Virus record (IMG/VR): IMGVR_UViG_3300029057_000122
Span: 1-5,084 of that record
DNA length: 5,084 nt
Source: a virus
Direction: 5' to 3' (one strand)
The notes under the pieces were generated by a model, which was given only the letters and a program-made list of their open reading frames with translations, was not told where the DNA came from and searched no databases. The position numbers and the translations under genes were made by a program. Below are positions 1-5,084 of the stretch, piece by piece. Numbering within the stretch: the stretch's first letter is position 1; each line of letters opens with the position of its first letter.

Positions 1-95
1 CTCCAATACCATTGATATAGATGTTGCCGATACCGGCCTTAACATCATCAATGCTTTGATGCAAAATGTCGGTCAGTTTGCTTTCATTGTTTCTC
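1..95. repeat. Terminal redundancy: exact copy of 4990-5084, marking the circular junction of a 4,989-nt genome
   Basis: Bases 1-95 (ctccaataccattgatatagatgttgcc...ttcattgtttctc) recur identically at 4990-5084. An ORF runs in frame across this join. Confidence 0.9.
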
Positions 96-154
96 TCCTT
101 TGTTTCGGTGCTGTTGTTCTCCGTGTGCTTATTCGAAAGGCGGTGGAAGGGTGA
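2..154 (+). CDS. C-terminal 50 codons plus stop of the same pIII-like CDS, wrapped around the junction
   Basis: Frame-2 codons from position 2 continue ...SNTIDIDVADTGLNIINALMQNVGQFAFIVSLLCFGAVVLRVLIRKAVEG*, with the stop TGA at 152-154. Confidence 0.7.
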   Translation, partial: SNTIDIDVADTGLNIINALMQNVGQFAFIVSLLCFGAVVLRVLIRKAVEG

Positions 155-282
155 CATTTCTTGATTTCTTCAAAGGCGTTATTACTTTCTTCGGTGCTGG
201 CGGGGCTTACGTCATTGCTTTTGTTGTCCTGCTCGTTGGTCTTGGTGTTTATAAGTTTGTGAAGGACTGGTTGCCATGGTAA
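151..282 (+). CDS. 43-aa leaderless small hydrophobic virion protein with pVIII/Pf3-coat-like architecture; a major or minor coat candidate
   Basis: GTG at 151 overlaps the pIII-like stop (GTGA), a translational-coupling arrangement, with GGTGG/GGAAGG just upstream. Product MTFLDFFKGVITFFGAGGAYVIAFVVLLVGLGVYKFVKDWLPW has an acidic N-terminus, a Gly-punctuated TM core (compare M13 pVIII ...AMVVVIVGATIGIKLFKKF) and a Lys-containing C-terminus. The ORF track lists this frame from TTG 100, but that start lacks an SD. Confidence 0.5.
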   Translation: MTFLDFFKGVITFFGAGGAYVIAFVVLLVGLGVYKFVKDWLPW

Positions 283-296
283 ATTTTGTTGAAACT

Positions 297-446
297 ATGA
301 AGGTGTGCACAGCCTTTGTTGCTAACATTCTTTCTATGTCTTTCTTCGGTTTCGGCACCTTCGGCAATTTCGTTCTAGTTTGTTTAGCACTTTCGCTTGT
401 CGGCTTTGTGCTTCGTTCAATCTGGGGTGGTGATAACAGTGATTGA
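297..446 (+). CDS. 49-aa small hydrophobic membrane protein (pVI/pVII/pIX-type candidate)
   Basis: ATG at 297. Product MKVCTAFVANILSMSFFGFGTFGNFVLVCLALSLVGFVLRSIWGGDNSD has two hydrophobic segments. Its 3' end overlaps the next start (GTGATTGA). The SD is weak. Below the size cutoff of the ORF track. Confidence 0.4.
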   Translation: MKVCTAFVANILSMSFFGFGTFGNFVLVCLALSLVGFVLRSIWGGDNSD

Positions 447-1074
447 GATTCCTAAAATTGTATACGGCCCTTGGCAAGATGCTCATGATGGCCGCATGTA
501 TTATACCGTCATGTATGACGGTCAAGACAAGTCCGAGGATATGCTTGTAGACGCTTACGATTATCTCGTAGCTTCTGCAAAGGCTGTGGAGACGCTGGAT
601 CAGCAGCAGTCCGCATCTGAGTTGGTGCCTGCGCAGTCCCCGCCTGAGCCGGCAGAAATTGTTCCTGTTGAGGAAGACCATACCGGCCTGCCGGAATATG
701 TGACAGCTCCTGAGGAGATGGAAGAGCTGCCGTTTGAAGGGAGTTTAACCGCATATGATGACCGAGCAGCAAATACTCCAGCTTTGTATGCTAATCTCCC
801 TGCTGTTAGTAATTCTTTCACTAACATTATGGATTGGTTCGGCGATACGTTTTTTATTGAACGTACTGAGACGGTTCATACATCCGGCTATACATCTCAA
901 AGGATCTCCACTTCTTCTTCGTATCAACTTATTCAACTGCCGTATGAGGAAGATTCCACGACTACTTCCCAAGTTCTCAACCCGCAAGCGTGCGTTTCTG
1001 CTCTTCTTGTTGTCCTCGTTTTTATTACTACTGTTACTTGGCTTAAAAACGCGATCTGGGGGCGCATGTACTGA
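439..1074 (+). CDS. 211-aa acidic, Pro/Ser/Thr-rich protein with a C-terminal TM anchor; function unknown. Track start is TTG 397, giving 225 aa
   Basis: Frame-1 ORF with GTG 439 preceded by GGGGTGGTGA (alternatives are TTG 397 and ATG 496). Contains an acidic Pro-rich linker ELVPAQSPPEPAEIVPVEEDHTGLPEYVTAPEEMEELPFEG, a Ser/Thr-rich region, and a C-terminal hydrophobic helix ACVSALLVVLVFITTVTWLKNAIWGRMY. No signal peptide. Stop TGA 1072-1074 overlaps the next ATG (TGATG). Confidence 0.6.
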   Translation: MIEIPKIVYGPWQDAHDGRMYYTVMYDGQDKSEDMLVDAYDYLVASAKAVETLDQQQSASELVPAQSPPEPAEIVPVEEDHTGLPEYVTAPEEMEELPFEGSLTAYDDRAANTPALYANLPAVSNSFTNIMDWFGDTFFIERTETVHTSGYTSQRISTSSSYQLIQLPYEEDSTTTSQVLNPQACVSALLVVLVFITTVTWLKNAIWGRMY

Positions 1075-1187
1075 TGGAAATTCTACCTTTTCAGTTCTGC
1101 TTCGGTATATTCTCGGTTCCTGAAATTGGCTATTTCATTGTTTTTGCCGCTGTTTTTTGCATGTTGGTTCTCCTATTCCGTCCGTGA
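1074..1187 (+). CDS. 37-aa very hydrophobic small protein (pVII/pIX-like minor virion or membrane protein candidate)
   Basis: ATG 1074 overlaps the upstream stop by one nt. Product MEILPFQFCFGIFSVPEIGYFIVFAAVFCMLVLLFRP. Third codon positions are T-rich. Confidence 0.4.
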   Translation: MEILPFQFCFGIFSVPEIGYFIVFAAVFCMLVLLFRP

Positions 1188-1216
1188 GTAGGTTCCAAAA
1201 TATTTTCGAAAGGGTG

Positions 1217-1315
1217 ATGACTTCAGACTCCTACTACTTCTATCATTGGTACGCTGCTTTCTCAGGTCGGCGAATTTTTCACTCAGATGATTACTTGGAT
1301 GGGTCAACTGATTGA
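1217..1315 (+). CDS. 32-aa ORF with a strong SD; possibly a leader ORF translationally coupled to the coat-like ORF it overlaps
   Basis: AAAGGGTG then ATG 1217. Product MTSDSYYFYHWYAAFSGRRIFHSDDYLDGSTD. Stop 1313-1315 lies 14-26 nt past the ATGs of the overlapping frame-3 ORF. Confidence 0.2.
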   Translation: MTSDSYYFYHWYAAFSGRRIFHSDDYLDGSTD

Positions 1316-1415
1316 CTTTTACGAGGAGCAGCCAATTCTCCTTGTTTTCGTCATTCTGACGATTGCAAGTATCGTGCTTCGTCTTCTCCGTCGCTGGATT
1401 CCCGGTCGCTCCTAA
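1287..1415 (+). CDS. 42-aa leaderless major-coat-protein candidate (Pf3/pVIII-like)
   Basis: Product MITWMGQLIDFYEEQPILLVFVILTIASIVLRLLRRWIPGRS has an acidic N-terminus (DFYEEQ), a 16-residue hydrophobic core and a C-terminal cluster of four Arg, the canonical inovirus major coat layout. It is followed immediately by a strong terminator, as gene VIII is in Ff phages. There is no clear SD. The frame is open and T3-biased upstream to 1221 without a canonical start, so the true N-terminus is uncertain (ATG 1299 is also possible). Confidence 0.45.
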   Translation: MITWMGQLIDFYEEQPILLVFVILTIASIVLRLLRRWIPGRS

Positions 1416-1420
1416 TGTGA

Positions 1421-1470
1421 GAGAAAACGCCGCCGACCATTTTTTTGGTCGGCGACGTTTTCTCGTTTTA
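1421..1470 (+). terminator. Rho-independent terminator or attenuator hairpin after the coat-like gene
   Basis: GAGAAAACGCCGCCGACCA (1421-1439) pairs with TGGTCGGCGACGTTTTCTC (1446-1464), a 19-bp stem with one mismatch and a T6 loop, followed by GTTTTAAG. Confidence 0.6.
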
Positions 1471-1487
1471 AGAAAGGATTATATGTC

Positions 1488-2108
1488 ATGCTTTATGGTA
1501 TTCTTATCTTTTGTGTTTGCTGGTTATTTGTTTATATCGATAACTATTGCAAAAACCCCTACAAATTGGAGGCTGTTGTGGGTTCAAAAGGTTCTGGAAA
1601 ATCTCTGTATATGTCTCGTGTTGCTGACCGCTGGCTTCGTTCTAACAAGGGGCTTATCTATTCTAATATGGGTATTGGTTACGAGTTAGAATCGGAATAT
1701 TGGAAACAGTCCTTTCTCCCTGATTCCCTTATTCTCATAGATGAGATTGGCGTCCTCCATTCTAACCGTGATTTTAAGTCTATGCCCCGTGAAGCTGTTG
1801 AATTTTTCAAGATGCAGCGCAAGTATCATCTGACAATTATTGTTAGCAGTCAGACCATGGATTTTGATAAAAAGATTCGTGACCTCTGCGACCGTATCTA
1901 TTTATGTAACCGGATTGGCTGGTTCTGCCGTCTCACTCCCTATCGCTCTTGTATCGCTATGGAACATCGCCCTGAGGGAGGCCAAGAGCTGGTTAACACG
2001 GTGCGAAAGGCGGGTCGGGCTAAGTGGTATACTATTCCAAAGTCCGTGAAGCAGGTAAGTGGTTTAGAATACGATACGGAGCAGGTTATCAGCAAGACCT
2101 CGAAATAA
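1488..2108 (+). CDS. Zot/pI-family assembly (morphogenesis) ATPase, short form of 206 aa with only the N-terminal P-loop domain
   Basis: AAAGGA lies 9 nt upstream of ATG 1488. Walker A GSKGSGKS and Walker B LILIDEIG are present. The sequence aligns in pattern with M13 pI (VTGKLGSGKT; LLVLDECG; HARKLGWDIIFLVQD versus QRKYHLTIIVSSQ). An N-terminal hydrophobic segment MLYGILIFCVCWLFVYIDNY precedes the P-loop. There is no C-terminal TM or periplasmic domain. Third codon positions are strongly T-biased. Confidence 0.85.
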   Translation: MLYGILIFCVCWLFVYIDNYCKNPYKLEAVVGSKGSGKSLYMSRVADRWLRSNKGLIYSNMGIGYELESEYWKQSFLPDSLILIDEIGVLHSNRDFKSMPREAVEFFKMQRKYHLTIIVSSQTMDFDKKIRDLCDRIYLCNRIGWFCRLTPYRSCIAMEHRPEGGQELVNTVRKAGRAKWYTIPKSVKQVSGLEYDTEQVISKTSK

Positions 2109-2115
2109 AAAACTT

Positions 2116-2154
2116 CCCCCCGTGCCCTTTAGGGTTAGGGGGGTTGTTTTTTTT
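2116..2154 (+). terminator. Rho-independent terminator after the pI/Zot gene
   Basis: CCCCCC-GTG-CCC-TTTA-GGG-TTA-GGGGGG forms a stem with an internal loop, followed by TTGTTTTTTTT. Confidence 0.65.
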
Positions 2155-2409
2155 AATAATTTTTATTTTTTTTATCTCCTTGAGCCTTGAAAGCCTTGCT
2201 ATTGCTGACTTTTTTGTTTCTGGTGCATCGTGCGGCTCTCCGGGCAGTTGCAACGTTTAGTCACGCGATAGCGTCTCCACCGCGTCCCCCGTCCCCGCAA
2301 GGGCAAAGCCCTTGCCCTTCCAAAACAAACTGGCAGGGGCTACCGTTGCGCTCCTTGCGGCGTGATGGTGGGGAAGGTGTAATACCCCCACCTGAGTAGA
2401 AGAAAGGGT
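2155..2409 (+). other. Non-coding intergenic region: an AT-rich tract then GC-rich structured DNA; candidate rolling-circle origin and packaging signal
   Basis: No ORF here shows coding bias. The region has T-runs (2155-2222), then GC-rich DNA with a tandem GTCCCC/CGTCCCC repeat and a perfect hairpin. This is the analogue of the Ff intergenic region and lies directly upstream of the rep promoter. Confidence 0.45.
2297..2315. repeat. Perfect 8-bp stem, 3-nt loop hairpin GCAAGGGC-AAA-GCCCTTGC in the intergenic region
   Basis: Exact inverted repeat read from the sequence. It is flanked by C-rich and G-rich runs and may be an origin nick-site or packaging hairpin. Confidence 0.4.
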
Positions 2410-2438
2410 TTGACAAGCCCCCCCGCCTGTGGTATGGT
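2410..2438 (+). promoter_or_regulatory. Sigma70-type promoter for the rep-ssb (and probably whole-genome) transcript
   Basis: TTGACA (2410-2415), a 17-nt spacer containing a C7 tract, a TG extended element at 2430-2431, and TATGGT (2433-2438). RBS AAAGGAGA at 2454-2461 and ATG at 2467. Confidence 0.6.
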
Positions 2439-2466
2439 TGCTGTAAAGAGTGAAAGGAGAAATATC

Positions 2467-3612
2467 ATGAGTACTTACGTTTTACGCCTTGACTATGCAA
2501 CTTTTGCCTTTACGCCCGGGTCGGTCGATTTGAACCGTGTGCAGTCGGTTCTTGCTGCTGGTGCTGACCTTGCTTTTCGTCAGTTTGGCATTTATGACAC
2601 TTCACCTTATCAGTCTCCCTTGGGATTGTACTATAAGCCGTATTGCGGCTCGAAAGAGAATCCGCATATCTTGCAAGTCTCCGGCTCGGCCTGTGAGCAT
2701 TTCCGTGAAACGCTCCCTTGTCTTGGTAAGGTTCTCCGCGATGGCGGGGAGCAGGCGCATTTCCGGCGTCTTGATTTCGCTTTCGATGTTATTATGTCCC
2801 GCTCCGACTGGCGTAAGTTTCTTTCTGATTGTTTCGCCTATTCGATGGAGCAGAACCGTCATAGAAAAAAGTTCCTGCTGCAAGGTTCCGGCGAAGCCAT
2901 GACTATTTATATCGGTTCTCGTAATTCTGACCACTTTTTCCGTGTCTATAACAAGACGCTTCAAGACCCTTCCTATTTGTTTATCAACGCTGACGGCACT
3001 ACTACTCCTGTTGCCGATGATCAGTGCGTTATTCGTTATGAGATTGAGTGCAAGCGCGTTAGTCGTTCTCGTGGCGGTCAGAATGTTACTTTTGACCCCT
3101 CCCCCATGTTTGACTGGTATTATTCCGATTCCCAGTTGCTTTTTGATGAGGTCAAAAAGCAGTGGCTTTCTTTTGGTAATGAAGTAATGCTCCCTGCCGG
3201 CTTCGAAGATGCTTCTTTTGTCACTGACATTGACGTGAAACACCTGCATCCGCTTGTAGGGGATATTGTATCCCCTTATAAGGAAGTCTGCTATGCCAAT
3301 GTCTCCGCGCGTCTCCATGACTATCCTCACGCTTTCGAACGGTCGCTTGAATTCGCCGCCCAGCGCTATGGCGCTTATGTACCCTATCTGCTTAGAGATG
3401 AGCGTTTGCTTACCATCTGCAAGGAAGCTGCTCGTGTTCGCTTCGGCTTTGACATTGATTTTTATGTTGACTTTGATGATACAGGCCGTTTTGAATTTGA
3501 AGTGATTTCCGATGATTCTTTCTCCCCGTGGTCAGAGGTCGGAGAGTTTGAACAAATAGATATTCTAAAAGGAAAGGAGCAATTAGTCTATGCGGATTTT
3601 GGTTGTAGGTAA
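2467..3612 (+). CDS. Rolling-circle replication initiation protein, Rep_trans family (381 aa)
   Basis: Motifs VSGSACEHF...HFRRLDFAFDV and IYIGSRNSDHFFRVYNKT match the Rep_trans (PF02486) signature seen in plasmid and inovirus Rep proteins such as RstA. Strong SD and ATG at 2467; the track start at 2410 lies inside the promoter. Third codon positions are T-biased. Confidence 0.9.
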   Translation: MSTYVLRLDYATFAFTPGSVDLNRVQSVLAAGADLAFRQFGIYDTSPYQSPLGLYYKPYCGSKENPHILQVSGSACEHFRETLPCLGKVLRDGGEQAHFRRLDFAFDVIMSRSDWRKFLSDCFAYSMEQNRHRKKFLLQGSGEAMTIYIGSRNSDHFFRVYNKTLQDPSYLFINADGTTTPVADDQCVIRYEIECKRVSRSRGGQNVTFDPSPMFDWYYSDSQLLFDEVKKQWLSFGNEVMLPAGFEDASFVTDIDVKHLHPLVGDIVSPYKEVCYANVSARLHDYPHAFERSLEFAAQRYGAYVPYLLRDERLLTICKEAARVRFGFDIDFYVDFDDTGRFEFEVISDDSFSPWSEVGEFEQIDILKGKEQLVYADFGCR

Positions 3613-3832
3613 ATCCCGCCGAGCTGGTACCTCTAAGGCTGGCAAAGACTACGATTTTACTACTCTCATGGTCGAGTATGACATGCGTGCAAACGATGAT
3701 AACTCGGGCGTGCAGGTCGATAGAATCAACGTTAGTGCCTCTATGATGCCTTTCGCGTTGGTAGAAGTTGGTGCAACCTATAATCTCGACTTTGACCGTA
3801 ATGGGTATCTGCTCGGTGTCGAAAAAATTTAA
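3590..3832 (+). CDS. Putative ssDNA-binding protein (gene V analogue), 80 aa
   Basis: AAGGAG lies 10 nt upstream of ATG 3590, and the ORF overlaps the rep 3' end by 23 nt. Size and position immediately after rep match inovirus pV. There is no recognisable motif, so the call rests on synteny. Confidence 0.5.
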   Translation: MRILVVGKSRRAGTSKAGKDYDFTTLMVEYDMRANDDNSGVQVDRINVSASMMPFALVEVGATYNLDFDRNGYLLGVEKI

Positions 3833-3854
3833 TTTCAACCTCCATTCACTCTTT

Positions 3855-3870
3855 GGCCGCTCCGGCGGCC
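3855..3870. repeat. GC hairpin GGCCGC-TCCG-GCGGCC immediately upstream of the tRNA
   Basis: Perfect 6-bp GC stem with a 4-nt loop. No T-tract follows, so it is not a terminator. It may be a processing or stability element. Confidence 0.35.
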
Positions 3871-3873
3871 TCT

Positions 3874-3947
3874 GGCGGGGTGGTGCAACGGTAGCACATC
3901 ACGCTCTGAACGTGAAACTTCTGGTTCGAATCCAGACCCCGCAACCA
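3874..3947 (+). tRNA. tRNA-Gln (anticodon CUG) with an encoded CCA
   Basis: Manual cloverleaf fold. Acceptor 3874-3880 pairs with 3937-3943 (6 bp plus a G1.A72 mismatch). U8. D-stem GTGC/GCAC with loop AACGGTA (G18 G19). Anticodon stem TCACG/CGTGA with loop CTCTGAA (U33, CUG, A37). A 4-nt variable loop. T-arm TCTGG-TTCGAAT-CCAGA. Discriminator A, then CCA. Resembles bacterial tRNA-Gln. Confidence 0.8.
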
Positions 3948-3967
3948 TTTAGAAAGGAAGTGCCGAT

Positions 3968-5084
3968 ATGCGTAAATTTAAGATGGGCATTCGCAGACTC
4001 GGGGCTTCCTTTGCTTCTTTTTTAATGGTTTGTTGTCTTTCCGCTCCGGCGTTCGCTGCTAATAATTGGCCTGTTTCTCCTTCTGATTCTGATTTTCGGG
4101 CTCATCCGAATTCTTGGTATGTTTGGCAGCGTAAATCTATTTCTGCTTATACCGGCTATGAGTTAATTTGTAGTCCTGTTGAAGAATCTTCTAGATACCC
4201 TGATTGTTTGTCGTCTGGTTGGTTTCCATATTCTACCGATTCTGGAACTTGGTCTTATTCTTCATCTAATTCTAAGCGTACTTATATGTATGCTGTTCCT
4301 TATATTCCTAGTTCTGATTTCGGTTATCTCTCTGATTTTCCCGTTTTCCCTGTTGGTGAACCTTCTTTTTCTACTGGTGTTCTTCGTGTTTACCCTGTTA
4401 AGTGGCGCGGGTATTTGAGTGGCATTTCTGATGTCTTTTCTGACCGTTCTGTATTCGGTTATTTGACTTCTTGGCCTTCCAATTCTTCTTCTTCTTCTTA
4501 TTCTGATTATTTCAATAACGAAGTTCTTAATTACAAGCCTATTTATTTTCCATCTAACATTTTCTTCTTTGGGGATAAAACTGATACTTCGACTAATCAT
4601 ACTTCTTTCTCCATTCAAAATGGAGATAATAATTTCTGGGCTACTCCTTCTAATAGTAATTATTTGCATTTGTCCAAGTCTCATTTGAGTACACCGGGGT
4701 TTCGTTCTTTCCCCTCTAATTTTTCTATTCCCTCTTCAGATGTTGGGCTCGTTTTTTGTAAGCGACCTTCTGGAGATGGTATGCACGTTTATAACTCGGA
4801 ATTTGATGTTTCTCTATCTTTTGGATTATCTCTTTGGGTTCCTGACGCCTTGCTTCCTGCTGATGTTGCTGTCGGTGACTGGATTTCGAAGACTGATGTT
4901 GAATCTCTTCAGGATCAGCTGGTAAAAGATTTCGATGTCAACTCCGATACTCTAGAAAACTCAAAGCAAAATTTCGATTCTTGGCAAAACTCCAATACCA
5001 TTGATATAGATGTTGCCGATACCGGCCTTAACATCATCAATGCTTTGATGCAAAATGTCGGTCAGTTTGCTTTCATTGTTTCTC
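3968..5084 (+). CDS. pIII-like minor coat/adsorption protein. Runs to the window edge and continues across the circular junction to a TGA at 152-154; full length about 391 aa
   Basis: ATG at 3968 preceded by AAAGGAAG 8-9 nt upstream. N-terminus MRKFKMGIRRLGASFASFLMVCCLSAPAFA|ANNW is a classical signal peptide with an AxA cleavage site. The body is Ser/Tyr/Phe/Pro-rich with paired Cys. The C-terminus (read in copy 2-154) is a hydrophobic anchor FAFIVSLLCFGAVVLRVL followed by IRKAVEG. Third codon positions are T-rich. The frame has no stop through 5084 and is missing from the ORF track only because it has no in-window stop. Confidence 0.7.
   Translation, partial: MRKFKMGIRRLGASFASFLMVCCLSAPAFAANNWPVSPSDSDFRAHPNSWYVWQRKSISAYTGYELICSPVEESSRYPDCLSSGWFPYSTDSGTWSYSSSNSKRTYMYAVPYIPSSDFGYLSDFPVFPVGEPSFSTGVLRVYPVKWRGYLSGISDVFSDRSVFGYLTSWPSNSSSSSYSDYFNNEVLNYKPIYFPSNIFFFGDKTDTSTNHTSFSIQNGDNNFWATPSNSNYLHLSKSHLSTPGFRSFPSNFSIPSSDVGLVFCKRPSGDGMHVYNSEFDVSLSFGLSLWVPDALLPADVAVGDWISKTDVESLQDQLVKDFDVNSDTLENSKQNFDSWQNSNTIDIDVADTGLNIINALMQNVGQFAFIVS
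4990..5084. repeat. Second copy of the terminal redundancy (same as 1-95)
   Basis: Exact 95-nt match to the window start, inside the coding sequence of the pIII-like gene. Confidence 0.9.

Follow-up and report, generated by a model that had tools for sequence, protein, structure and literature searches.

A candidate phage-private initiator tRNA for a coat-like gene opening with CAG in gut inoviruses

The window analysed here is a stretch of 5,084 nucleotides (nt) of viral DNA (IMG/VR record IMGVR_UViG_3300029057_000122, positions 1 to 5,084), which carries a transfer RNA (tRNA) gene with the anticodon CUG at positions 3874-3947. Judging from sequence comparisons, this tRNA is quite probably a phage-private initiator, which would start a coat-like gene of the same genome at the codon CAG 1224 and not at AUG. 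The initiator role is proposed because the anticodon is matched to the codon that opens the coat-like gene, in the position usual for AUG. More generally, it appears likely that a group of gut inoviruses and their prophage relatives in Oscillospiraceae use a natural orthogonal initiation system, in which a tRNA with a CUN anticodon is matched to an NAG start codon, tRNA position 37 and mRNA position -1 form a fourth pair, the product carries Gln or Glu at its N-terminus, and its synthesis is conditional on the phage tRNA. In bacteria, AUG and its near-cognates are regarded as the start codons, with tRNA-fMet as the single initiator that reads them, and, to our knowledge, non-AUG initiator tRNAs exist only as engineered tools.

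The tRNA gene and the coat-like gene of the window

The elements that bear directly on the proposal are:

3874-3947, + strand: tRNA of 74 nt with anticodon CUG (3906-3908), G1.A72, A73 and an encoded CCA; proposed dedicated initiator (ARAGORN, Rfam, compensatory changes, family alignment)
3873, + strand: T at tRNA position -1, a probable determinant of the RNase P site (T in all but one of 47 genomes)
1208-1214, + strand: Shine-Dalgarno (SD) site GAAAGGG of the coat-like gene (column counts)
1215-1220, + strand: tandem in-frame stops TGA TGA just 5' of the proposed start (sequence, conservation)
1224-1226, + strand: CAG, the proposed start codon, complementary to the anticodon CUG; the preceding T1223 is able to pair with A37
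1224-1415, + strand: coat-like gene of 63 codons and a stop (coding constraint, alignment of 43 relatives)
1431-1454, + strand: strong terminator-like hairpin with a T-run directly 3' of the coat-like gene (consensus scan)

The initial annotation had claimed a full-length canonical tRNA(CUG) at 3874-3947, and this is borne out. The only ARAGORN tRNA call in the window is at 3874-3947 on the + strand, with anticodon CTG; Rfam model RF00005 matches the same segment with 58.6 bits (gathering score 29, E = 3.4e-11), and the minimum-free-energy (MFE) fold of 3845-3965 is the cloverleaf (z = -2.5). All the features listed in that annotation (U8, the GG of the D-loop, here G18-G19, the T-loop TTCGAAT, U33, A37 and the encoded CCA) are seen in the sequence, together with A73. 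Its conserved tertiary nucleotides (U8, G18-G19, a TTCRANY T-loop and U33) and its score above the threshold are those of a member of RF00005. Among 25 distinct relatives, both sides have changed in 11 of the 21 cloverleaf pairs, and the share of paired cells is 92.8%, as against 80.2% in shuffles; the observed values were reached by none of 500 shuffles, and sliding of the 3' partners abolished the covariation signal. The element is a genuine tRNA gene, and chance structure is excluded.

The anticodon CUG is one of the two expected of an elongator tRNA-Gln (CUG or UUG), whereas the U1-A72 pair of such a tRNA is replaced by G1.A72. The pair in question is an identity element for bacterial GatCAB (PMC2811023) and is opened by GlnRS (PMC1635274). 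The mismatch, which the initial annotation had singled out as unusual, is real in the sequence and, on our reading, functionally meaningful.

Standard open reading frame (ORF) finding delivers only a 42-amino-acid (aa) hydrophobic ORF in the region of the coat-like gene, from ATG 1287 to 1415, and this ATG is without an SD site. In the alignment of 43 relatives, to which the following counts refer, coding constraint reaches upstream of ATG 1287, because the frame-0 codon-position entropies of 1227-1286 (0.45/0.18/0.79) are like those of the downstream ORF (0.24/0.06/0.86) and not flat as in intergenic sequence (0.33/0.30/0.35), indels are of 3 or 6 nt only, and stops are entirely absent. The two codons 5' of ATG 1287 vary as ACN and as TCN or CAR. 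GAAAGG of the SD site (1208-1213) is invariant in 43/43 relatives, and so is CAG 1224-1226, located 9 nt after the SD site, while the flanking codons vary (the preceding one is CTT, TTT or CAT). Frame 0 of the window reads TGA TGA CTT CAG, so that no in-frame initiation is available upstream of CAG 1224. Between this codon and ATG 1287, 10 of the 43 sequences contain no ATG, GTG or TTG, and the others only a TTG in the middle of the extension, without an SD site. CAG 1224 is the only site of the window at which an SD site and CAG follow an in-frame stop.

The predicted product of 63 aa, QTPTTSIIGTLLSQVGEFFTQMITWMGQLIDFYEEQPILLVFVILTIASIVLRLLRRWIPGRS, is rich in Thr/Ser at its N-terminus and basic at its C-terminus, with a transmembrane helix, and resembles a signal-less inovirus coat protein in its organisation. 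Searches of Pfam and PHROGs with this protein returned no family; its homolog in a related phage (PQ006129, referred to as L007) matches phrog_2186, a virion structural protein. In PQ006129, positions 4390-4762 are left unannotated, a stretch that holds both the tRNA and the putative CAG-start coat gene, and a non-AUG start would explain why the coat-like gene is missed or truncated by gene callers.

Frame 2 was considered as the coding frame and rejected: its ATG(ATG) at 1214-1219 lies only 0-2 nt from the SD site, and the frame stops at differing places among the relatives. The segment between the SD site and CAG is itself near-invariant, GTGATGA at 1214-1220 (ATGATGA in most relatives), and extends the complementarity to the 3' end of 16S rRNA. 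It also supplies the tandem frame-0 stops, plus an out-of-frame ATG too near the SD site for use.

Anticodon and first codon across related phages

The loci compared (labelled L001 and so on) are related phage records, IMG/VR contigs, prophages and some cellular comparison loci. tRNA(CTG) is present in all seven related phage records retrieved by BLAST. A search with the Zot-like protein, which is independent of the tRNA sequence, yielded 37 IMG/VR contigs of ~5 kb. The tRNA is kept at the same place in every relative whose contig spans the junction between a conserved 80-aa ORF (orf80) and the large variable ORF, and the four contigs of the Zot search without it are partial, ending short of that junction. 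The gene is also found in distant inoviruses with other Rep families: L005/6, L007, and relatives from assemblies of Oscillospiraceae, namely Oscillibacter sp. MSJ-31 (L030), an Acutalibacter metagenome-assembled genome (MAG) and UBA4632. There, too, its position is always 3' of the replication genes. Members of the Oscillospiraceae are therefore likely hosts of the relatives in these assemblies, in keeping with the targeting of gut inoviruses by Clostridiales CRISPR (PMC8530359). A Rep-based search of viral contigs and a search with the L007 Zot protein were unproductive.

In all examined divergent tRNA-bearing lineages with the coat gene in the available sequence, an SD site is followed after 5-9 nt by a CAG that opens a coat-like ORF; L037, whose coat gene lies beyond the available stretch, stands outside this comparison. 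The arrangements are:

L030: SD GAAAGGAG, 9 nt, CAG; directly after the tRNA
L007: SD AAAGGGGGT, 7 nt, CAG; directly after the tRNA, in the unannotated stretch of PQ006129
L026, L032 and L028: SD GGAAAGGAGG.., 5-6 nt, CAG; directly after the tRNA
L005: SD GAAAGGGGTG, 6 nt, CAG; the next in-frame ATG is 39 codons on, inside the transmembrane helix

SD+CAG coat genes are likewise present on the partial contigs L066 and L067. In L070, by contrast with these CUG lineages, the tRNA has the anticodon CUA, and a second coat paralog begins with SD AGGAGGTG, 6 nt and TAG ACT ACT GTC... A metagenome scan for family tRNAs with a third anticodon base other than G brought up many inovirus or prophage contigs with CUC, each of which then has an SD site, 5-8 nt and GAG with a homologous coat ORF, and three further CUA phages with SD-TAG. 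When one fixed SD/ORF filter, a heuristic of our own, was applied to the Zot-positive loci, the following counts were obtained:

Anticodon CTG, 43 loci: matching SD+CAG coat-like ORF in 43/43; non-matching GAG in 5, TAG in 0, AAG in 2
Anticodon CTC, 31 loci: matching GAG in 29/31; non-matching CAG in 4, TAG in 1, AAG in 4
Anticodon CTA, 4 loci: matching TAG in 4/4; non-matching hits none

The CTC loci without a match are both partial contigs, 2.0 and 3.3 kb long. The pair has switched between sister lineages: L007 (CUG/CAG) versus L127/L195 (CUC/GAG), with Zot proteins 63% identical; L070 (CUA/UAG) versus L133/L165/L185 (CUC/GAG), also at 63%; and L028 (CUG/CAG) versus L132/L141/L202 (CUC/GAG), at 64-68%. 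Furthermore, tRNA position 37 covaries with mRNA position -1. C37, which occurs in L005/6, the L070 group and the L133/165/185 group, is always opposite G(-1), and A37 is opposite U(-1) in 48 listed contexts, with C or A at -1 in two lineages of these and with a few false positives included in the table (such as sites of ATG-GAG starts and, in the window's clade, an internal CAG site).

Relatives that lack the tRNA (L068 and L071) start all their coat paralogs with SD+ATG. Tandem coat paralogs, one with an ATG start and one with an NAG start at the same distance from the SD site, are present in L005, L070 and L185, which suggests two coat variants, differently regulated or differently N-terminated. 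The tandem copies are located at L005:4284-4685, at L070:3976-4392, and at 15-194 and 5656-5820 of L185. For the proposed decoding of the first codon at SD spacing by tRNA(CUG), the comparative evidence is strong.

One further member of the family has the anticodon CUU (L158:1231-1304), with C1.A72 and T at -1, and lies on a partial inovirus contig ending before the coat gene; an AAG start would be predicted for it. Non-canonical anticodon loops were observed in three members, with G33 in L045, an 8-nt loop in L059 (WW-nAnB JN402401) and C33 in L070, and may be sequencing errors or tolerated variants.

Initiator-like features and alternative readings

A pattern that represents the tRNA's 5' half and allows any anticodon also matched ~45 compact tRNA-Met(CAU) genes of tailed phages. 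As these matches are of the initiator type, we asked whether the inovirus tRNA could be an initiator with an altered anticodon and, accordingly, whether some phage gene starts with CAG. The tailed-phage genes (L077-L121, 72-74 nt) have an N1xA72 mismatch (position 1 being C, G or A), A73 and, in many, GGG/CCC in the anticodon stem. Their first 25 nt are near-identical to those of the inovirus tRNA, and they may represent a phage-specific lineage of initiator tRNAs.

Within the inovirus family, position 1:72 is unpaired in 49 of 51 distinct tRNAs (G.A in 31, C.A in 13, U.C in 4 and A.A in 1), the remaining 2 having U-A; at position 1, U is very rare and G, C or A the rule. A73, G2-G5 and the 3' end ACCA are invariant. 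The sole exception to T at -1 among the 47 genomes is L032, which has U1-A72; positions -2 and -3 vary, and T(-1) is invariant whenever N1 is not U. According to the work of RajBhandary and Blanquet, the determinants of formylation are reportedly A73, G2:C71, C3:G70 and G4:C69. All four are found in the window tRNA and are invariant in the family alignments, and G.A at 1:72 corresponds to the mismatch or weak pair of bacterial initiators. The 3' end CAACCA and the proposed decoding in the P site after an SD site are further likenesses to tRNA-fMet. Because the anticodon is CUG and not CAU, we class the tRNA as one that would work like an initiator, and not as a member of tRNA-fMet. It also differs from the latter in having one of three G:C pairs in the anticodon stem, U11:A24 in place of A11:U24, a length of 74 nt with a 7-nt D-loop and, presumably, Gln or Glu in place of Met.

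In the proposed mechanism, the tRNA would be co-transcribed with the replication genes and then excised, presumably by RNase P. Its acceptor end (1x72, A73, G2:C71, C3:G70 and G4:C69) would let Met-tRNA formyltransferase and IF2 accept it and would disfavour EF-Tu. The anticodon CUG would then pair with CAG 1224-1226 at the normal distance of a start codon from a strong SD site, and a probable fourth pair, A37:U(-1), would reinforce the interaction between tRNA and mRNA. The phage would thus need its own tRNA to make the coat-like protein, whose first residue would be Gln or Glu, possibly formylated, and not Met; the predicted N-terminus is (f)Q/E/pyroGlu-TPTTSIIGTLLSQVGEFFTQMITW..., or Q/E-DVVAAATTLSG... 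in L030. The anticodons observed are all CUN, for which GlnRS or a non-discriminating GluRS would be fitting charging enzymes, and with U1-A72 broken GatCAB might not amidate, in which case the N-terminal residue could be Glu in every class. The tRNA and its conservation, the reach of the coding constraint back to CAG 1224, the lack of an in-frame canonical start 5' of this codon in the window and the two covariations in the family are computational results; we infer the excision by RNase P, the amino acid charged, the formylation, the biological benefit and the IF2-mediated delivery to the P site.

A precedent is provided by an engineered E. coli tRNAfMet with the anticodon CUA, which initiates at UAG with formyl-glutamine, and IF3 checks the pairing of codon and anticodon, not AUG as such (PMC11744186). 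Such engineered initiators have in common with the inovirus tRNA an initiator-type acceptor, a non-CAU anticodon and a complementary non-AUG codon after an SD site (PMC11744186), but they are laboratory constructs made from tRNAfMet and keep its three G:C pairs. The inovirus pair, in contrast, appears to be natural and phage-encoded, would serve one virion gene, comes in at least three codon versions (CAG, GAG and UAG) and is mostly without the three G:C pairs. The tRNAs of tailed phages are likewise carried by a phage, and the CUA members of the inovirus family resemble the amber-suppressor tRNAs of recoded phages. However, the inovirus genome is single-stranded DNA (ssDNA) of 5 kb with a single tRNA, whose codon is already preferred by the host and which seems tied to one start codon, and, unlike recoded phages, the CUA lineage has larger genes without in-frame TAG.

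Several observations weigh against an initiator role. The G:C pairs at 29:41, 30:40 and 31:39 are not all present: the window tRNA has A-U, C-G and G-C, that is, 1/3, and across the family all three are found in 3 sequences, two in 26, one in 16 and none in 7. Position 11:24 is U11:A24, of the elongator type, in the window and most relatives, with A11:U24 in a subset of the CUC members. G2-C3-G4 and A73 also occur in cellular elongator tRNA-Gln(CUG) from several phyla. One of them, in a tRNA cluster of a Planctomycetaceae MAG (L035), even has C1.A72 and T at -1. Thus, the acceptor sequence alone is not diagnostic, and the 1x72 mismatch in tRNA-Gln is not exclusive to phages. The phage also uses CAG as an ordinary sense codon (26 times), and an additional role as elongator is possible. 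The independent events are few (at least 3 codon switches and 3 origins of C37), with many of the loci being close relatives, and the SD/ORF filter behind the counts is heuristic. Finally, some lineages have an in-frame GTG or TTG 1-3 codons 5' of the special codon, abutting the SD site, and for those members initiation at GTG/TTG followed by elongation is a possible alternative.

We also considered whether the acceptor stem proves descent from tRNA-fMet, and this was not sustained, since cellular elongator tRNA-Gln(CUG) share G2-G6 and A73. Region-by-region identity is 0.68 to cellular tRNA-Gln and 0.67 to tailed-phage tRNA-Met, values biased by the fact that both sets were found with patterns from the inovirus tRNA. 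A closely similar cellular type, UGCGGGA...A73 of Patescibacteria, Saccharibacteria and Planctomycetota, agrees with the phage tRNA in length, architecture, G2-G6, A73 and the loop CUCUGAA; it has, however, a U1-A72 pair, which the phage tRNAs almost always break.

It is unlikely that the tRNA is an ordinary elongator tRNA-Gln(CUG), which would boost the decoding of internal CAG codons or replace a host tRNA depleted or cleaved in infection. A canonical cloverleaf, an encoded CCA and a conserved anticodon would all be expected of an elongator, as would the 74-nt length, the 7-nt D-loop and the 4-nt variable loop, which are those of cellular tRNA-Gln(CUG) of several phyla; phage tRNAs that replace cleaved host tRNAs have been proposed for other phages (PMC10264068). 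However, CAG accounts for only 26 of 1,464 phage codons, barely more than CAA (18), and is already preferred by the host, with 31 CAG versus 2 CAA in the bacterial genes beside the L037 prophage. Codon compensation was rejected on these counts and on the 0-1 Gln codons of the other small hydrophobic ORFs. What survives of the earlier idea that the tRNA supplies CAG decoding is narrower, in that the evidence points to one CAG, the start codon of the coat-like gene. Moreover, an elongator role leaves unexplained the near-universal 1x72 mismatch, the CUC and CUA switches that match the first codon of the coat gene, and the covariation of 37 with -1, and under it the variants with a pyrimidine at 37 or without U33 are odd.

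A start at a nearby canonical or near-cognate codon, after which the phage tRNA would merely elongate at NAG (as an amber suppressor in the CUA lineage), is very improbable. An in-frame GTG or TTG does occur 1-3 codons 5' of the special codon in L070, L147, L137, L141 and L165. Yet these codons overlap or abut the SD site (spacing 0-3 nt), the window context TGA TGA CTT CAG leaves no place for one, and no canonical start lies between the upstream stop and NAG in L007, L026, L030, L032, L126, L127, L171 and L180. In addition, host tRNAs already read CAG and GAG as sense codons, which would make a phage tRNA needless. Amber-suppressor recoding was rejected for L070: its larger genes contain no in-frame TAG, and the only relevant TAG, the SD-proximal first codon of the coat paralog, does not make it a stop-codon-recoded phage.

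The bare presence of a tRNA in this phage lineage is already on record. The initial annotation regarded a tRNA as unexpected in a filamentous phage of about 5 kb, which is broadly right, but an in-silico survey of 2019 had listed one tRNA in 3 of 47 Inoviridae genomes, all WW-nAnB strains, with KJ003981/2 given as tRNA-Gln(ctg) and JN402401 as an odd tRNA, tRNA-Ser(act) (PMC6409571). The WW-nAnB tRNA-Gln(CUG) of Morgado and Vicente belongs to the same gene family and the same phage lineage as that of the window; the survey lists the gene only and mentions no function, no link to a coat start and no mismatch (PMC6409571). The literature searched contained no report of a natural non-AUG initiator tRNA in phages or of a link between inoviruses and initiator tRNA, and none combining inovirus with tRNA-Gln. 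The tRNA is annotated in none of the records L001-L007.

If the proposal holds, a virus has a new way to control one of its genes, and CAG, GAG and even the stop codon UAG are genuine natural start codons. It would account for the retention, in the smallest phage genomes with a tRNA, of one that reads a codon already favoured in the sole host sample examined. The pairs would be ready-made orthogonal initiation pairs for synthetic biology and a test bed for which initiator features (1x72, the three G:C pairs or the 37:-1 pair) selection in the P site needs. As the lineage is abundant in raw sewage (PMC3187576), material should be accessible.

Genome context and transcript processing

The first and last 95 nt of the window (1-95 and 4990-5084) are an exact repeat, so that the window represents a complete circle of 4,989 bp with terminal redundancy. 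All credible genes are on the + strand. [quoted passage not shown] Cantalupo et al. described the WW-nAnB lineage as a novel inovirus abundant in raw sewage, where it counted among the viruses of highest abundance, and the main text of that paper leaves the tRNA unmentioned (PMC3187576). The other features are:

1488-2108, + strand: Zot-like assembly ATPase, an inovirus hallmark, 92-99% identical within the window's clade (PF05707)
2410-2438, + strand: best promoter-like site, TTGACA-17-TATGGT, 5' of Rep (consensus scan, 10/12 matches)
2467-3612, + strand: Rep_trans rolling-circle initiator, upstream of the tRNA and in the same direction of transcription (PF02486, E = 5e-9; phrog_27843, E = 1e-74)
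3590-3832, + strand: orf80, 80 aa, the gene immediately preceding the tRNA, weakly similar to RstB-like ssDNA-binding proteins (phrog_929, E = 5e-4; conserved in relatives)
3855-3870, + strand: GC hairpin GGCCGC-tccg-GCGGCC, ending 3 nt before the 5' end of the tRNA (in the MFE fold; same place in most lineages)
3968-5084, + strand: large variable ORF of 391 aa, wrapping to 96-154 of the circle, with a signal-peptide-like N-terminus; presumed adsorption protein

The large variable ORF has a normal SD+ATG start immediately 3' of the tRNA, and the window also codes for several small hydrophobic ORFs. In agreement with the initial annotation, which saw no evident promoter, the consensus scan found nothing promoter-like directly upstream of the tRNA, and the site at 2410-2438 is the probable source of the transcript that carries the tRNA.

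A GC-rich tetraloop hairpin ends 3-5 nt before the tRNA in most lineages (L001-L024, L007, L028 and L037, in the last after a longer AT-rich spacer), with stems that differ among clades: GGCCGC/GCGGCC, GAGAGCGG/CCGCTCTC, GAGGGC/GCCCTC and GTGCCGG/CCGGCAC. Once RNase P has excised the tRNA, this hairpin may shield the upstream mRNA at its 3' end, and many lineages would have a coat mRNA that starts immediately 3' of the excised tRNA. A second hairpin, ACGGA-nTTGACC-TCCGT (or CTGTCG...CGACAG) with the loop motif TTGACCTCC, lies 2-3 nt after CCA in L008-L024 and most IMG/VR relatives. The window is without it, and SD+ATG directly follows the tRNA there.

The initial annotation had proposed 'tRNA punctuation', that is, a signal for RNA processing between the replication and structural modules. 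As a pure processing signal, whose mature tRNA would have no decoding role, the element is hard to defend, although phages that differ in Rep family have it at one and the same module boundary, without a promoter-like site upstream, with a structurally conserved hairpin before it in most lineages and with invariant T(-1) and ACCA. Pure processing would leave the anticodon unconstrained, yet within lineages the latter does not vary, and where it has changed, the first codon of the coat gene and its -1 base have changed too. Punctuation may thus be a by-product, to which the conserved hairpin would attest, but alone it cannot explain the covariation of anticodon and start codon; as an added effect, processing is compatible with an initiator role.

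The suggestions that the tRNA, by homology to a host tRNA gene, is an attP-like target, or that complementary-strand priming or packaging uses it as a DNA structure, are barely credible, even though some inoviruses integrate at tRNA genes (PMC6813254, PMC8530359) and the packaged strand would carry the cloverleaf as DNA, since neither explains why anticodon and start codon covary. Integration was rejected because no integrase was found in the window and the tRNA of L037 sits within the prophage, with ~1.4 kb between it and the border to bacterial transketolase genes and a tyrosine recombinase gene, and is not part of a tRNA-gene attP/attB module. As for priming or packaging, a role as DNA structure would not constrain the anticodon, and the obvious candidate is a separate structured region, the 358-nt non-coding segment 2109-2466, which holds GC-rich palindromes and the best promoter-like site and is the probable replication origin and packaging region.

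The genomes are strongly mosaic: identity in the clade is 92-99% for Zot, 37-91% for Rep and 33-66% for the large ORF, in uncorrelated combinations. The conserved tRNA at the boundary between variable modules could serve as a recombination joint. In the Acutalibacter-associated relative, the large structural ORF (L028:2297-4603) includes a Peptidase_M23 domain, not usually seen in the adsorption proteins of inoviruses. The window DNA shares 83-86% identity with 'Inovirus sp.' records of GenBank that come from pigs; these are flagged UNVERIFIED, and their genes are named 'protein A/C/F/H' after the old ORF names of X53411.

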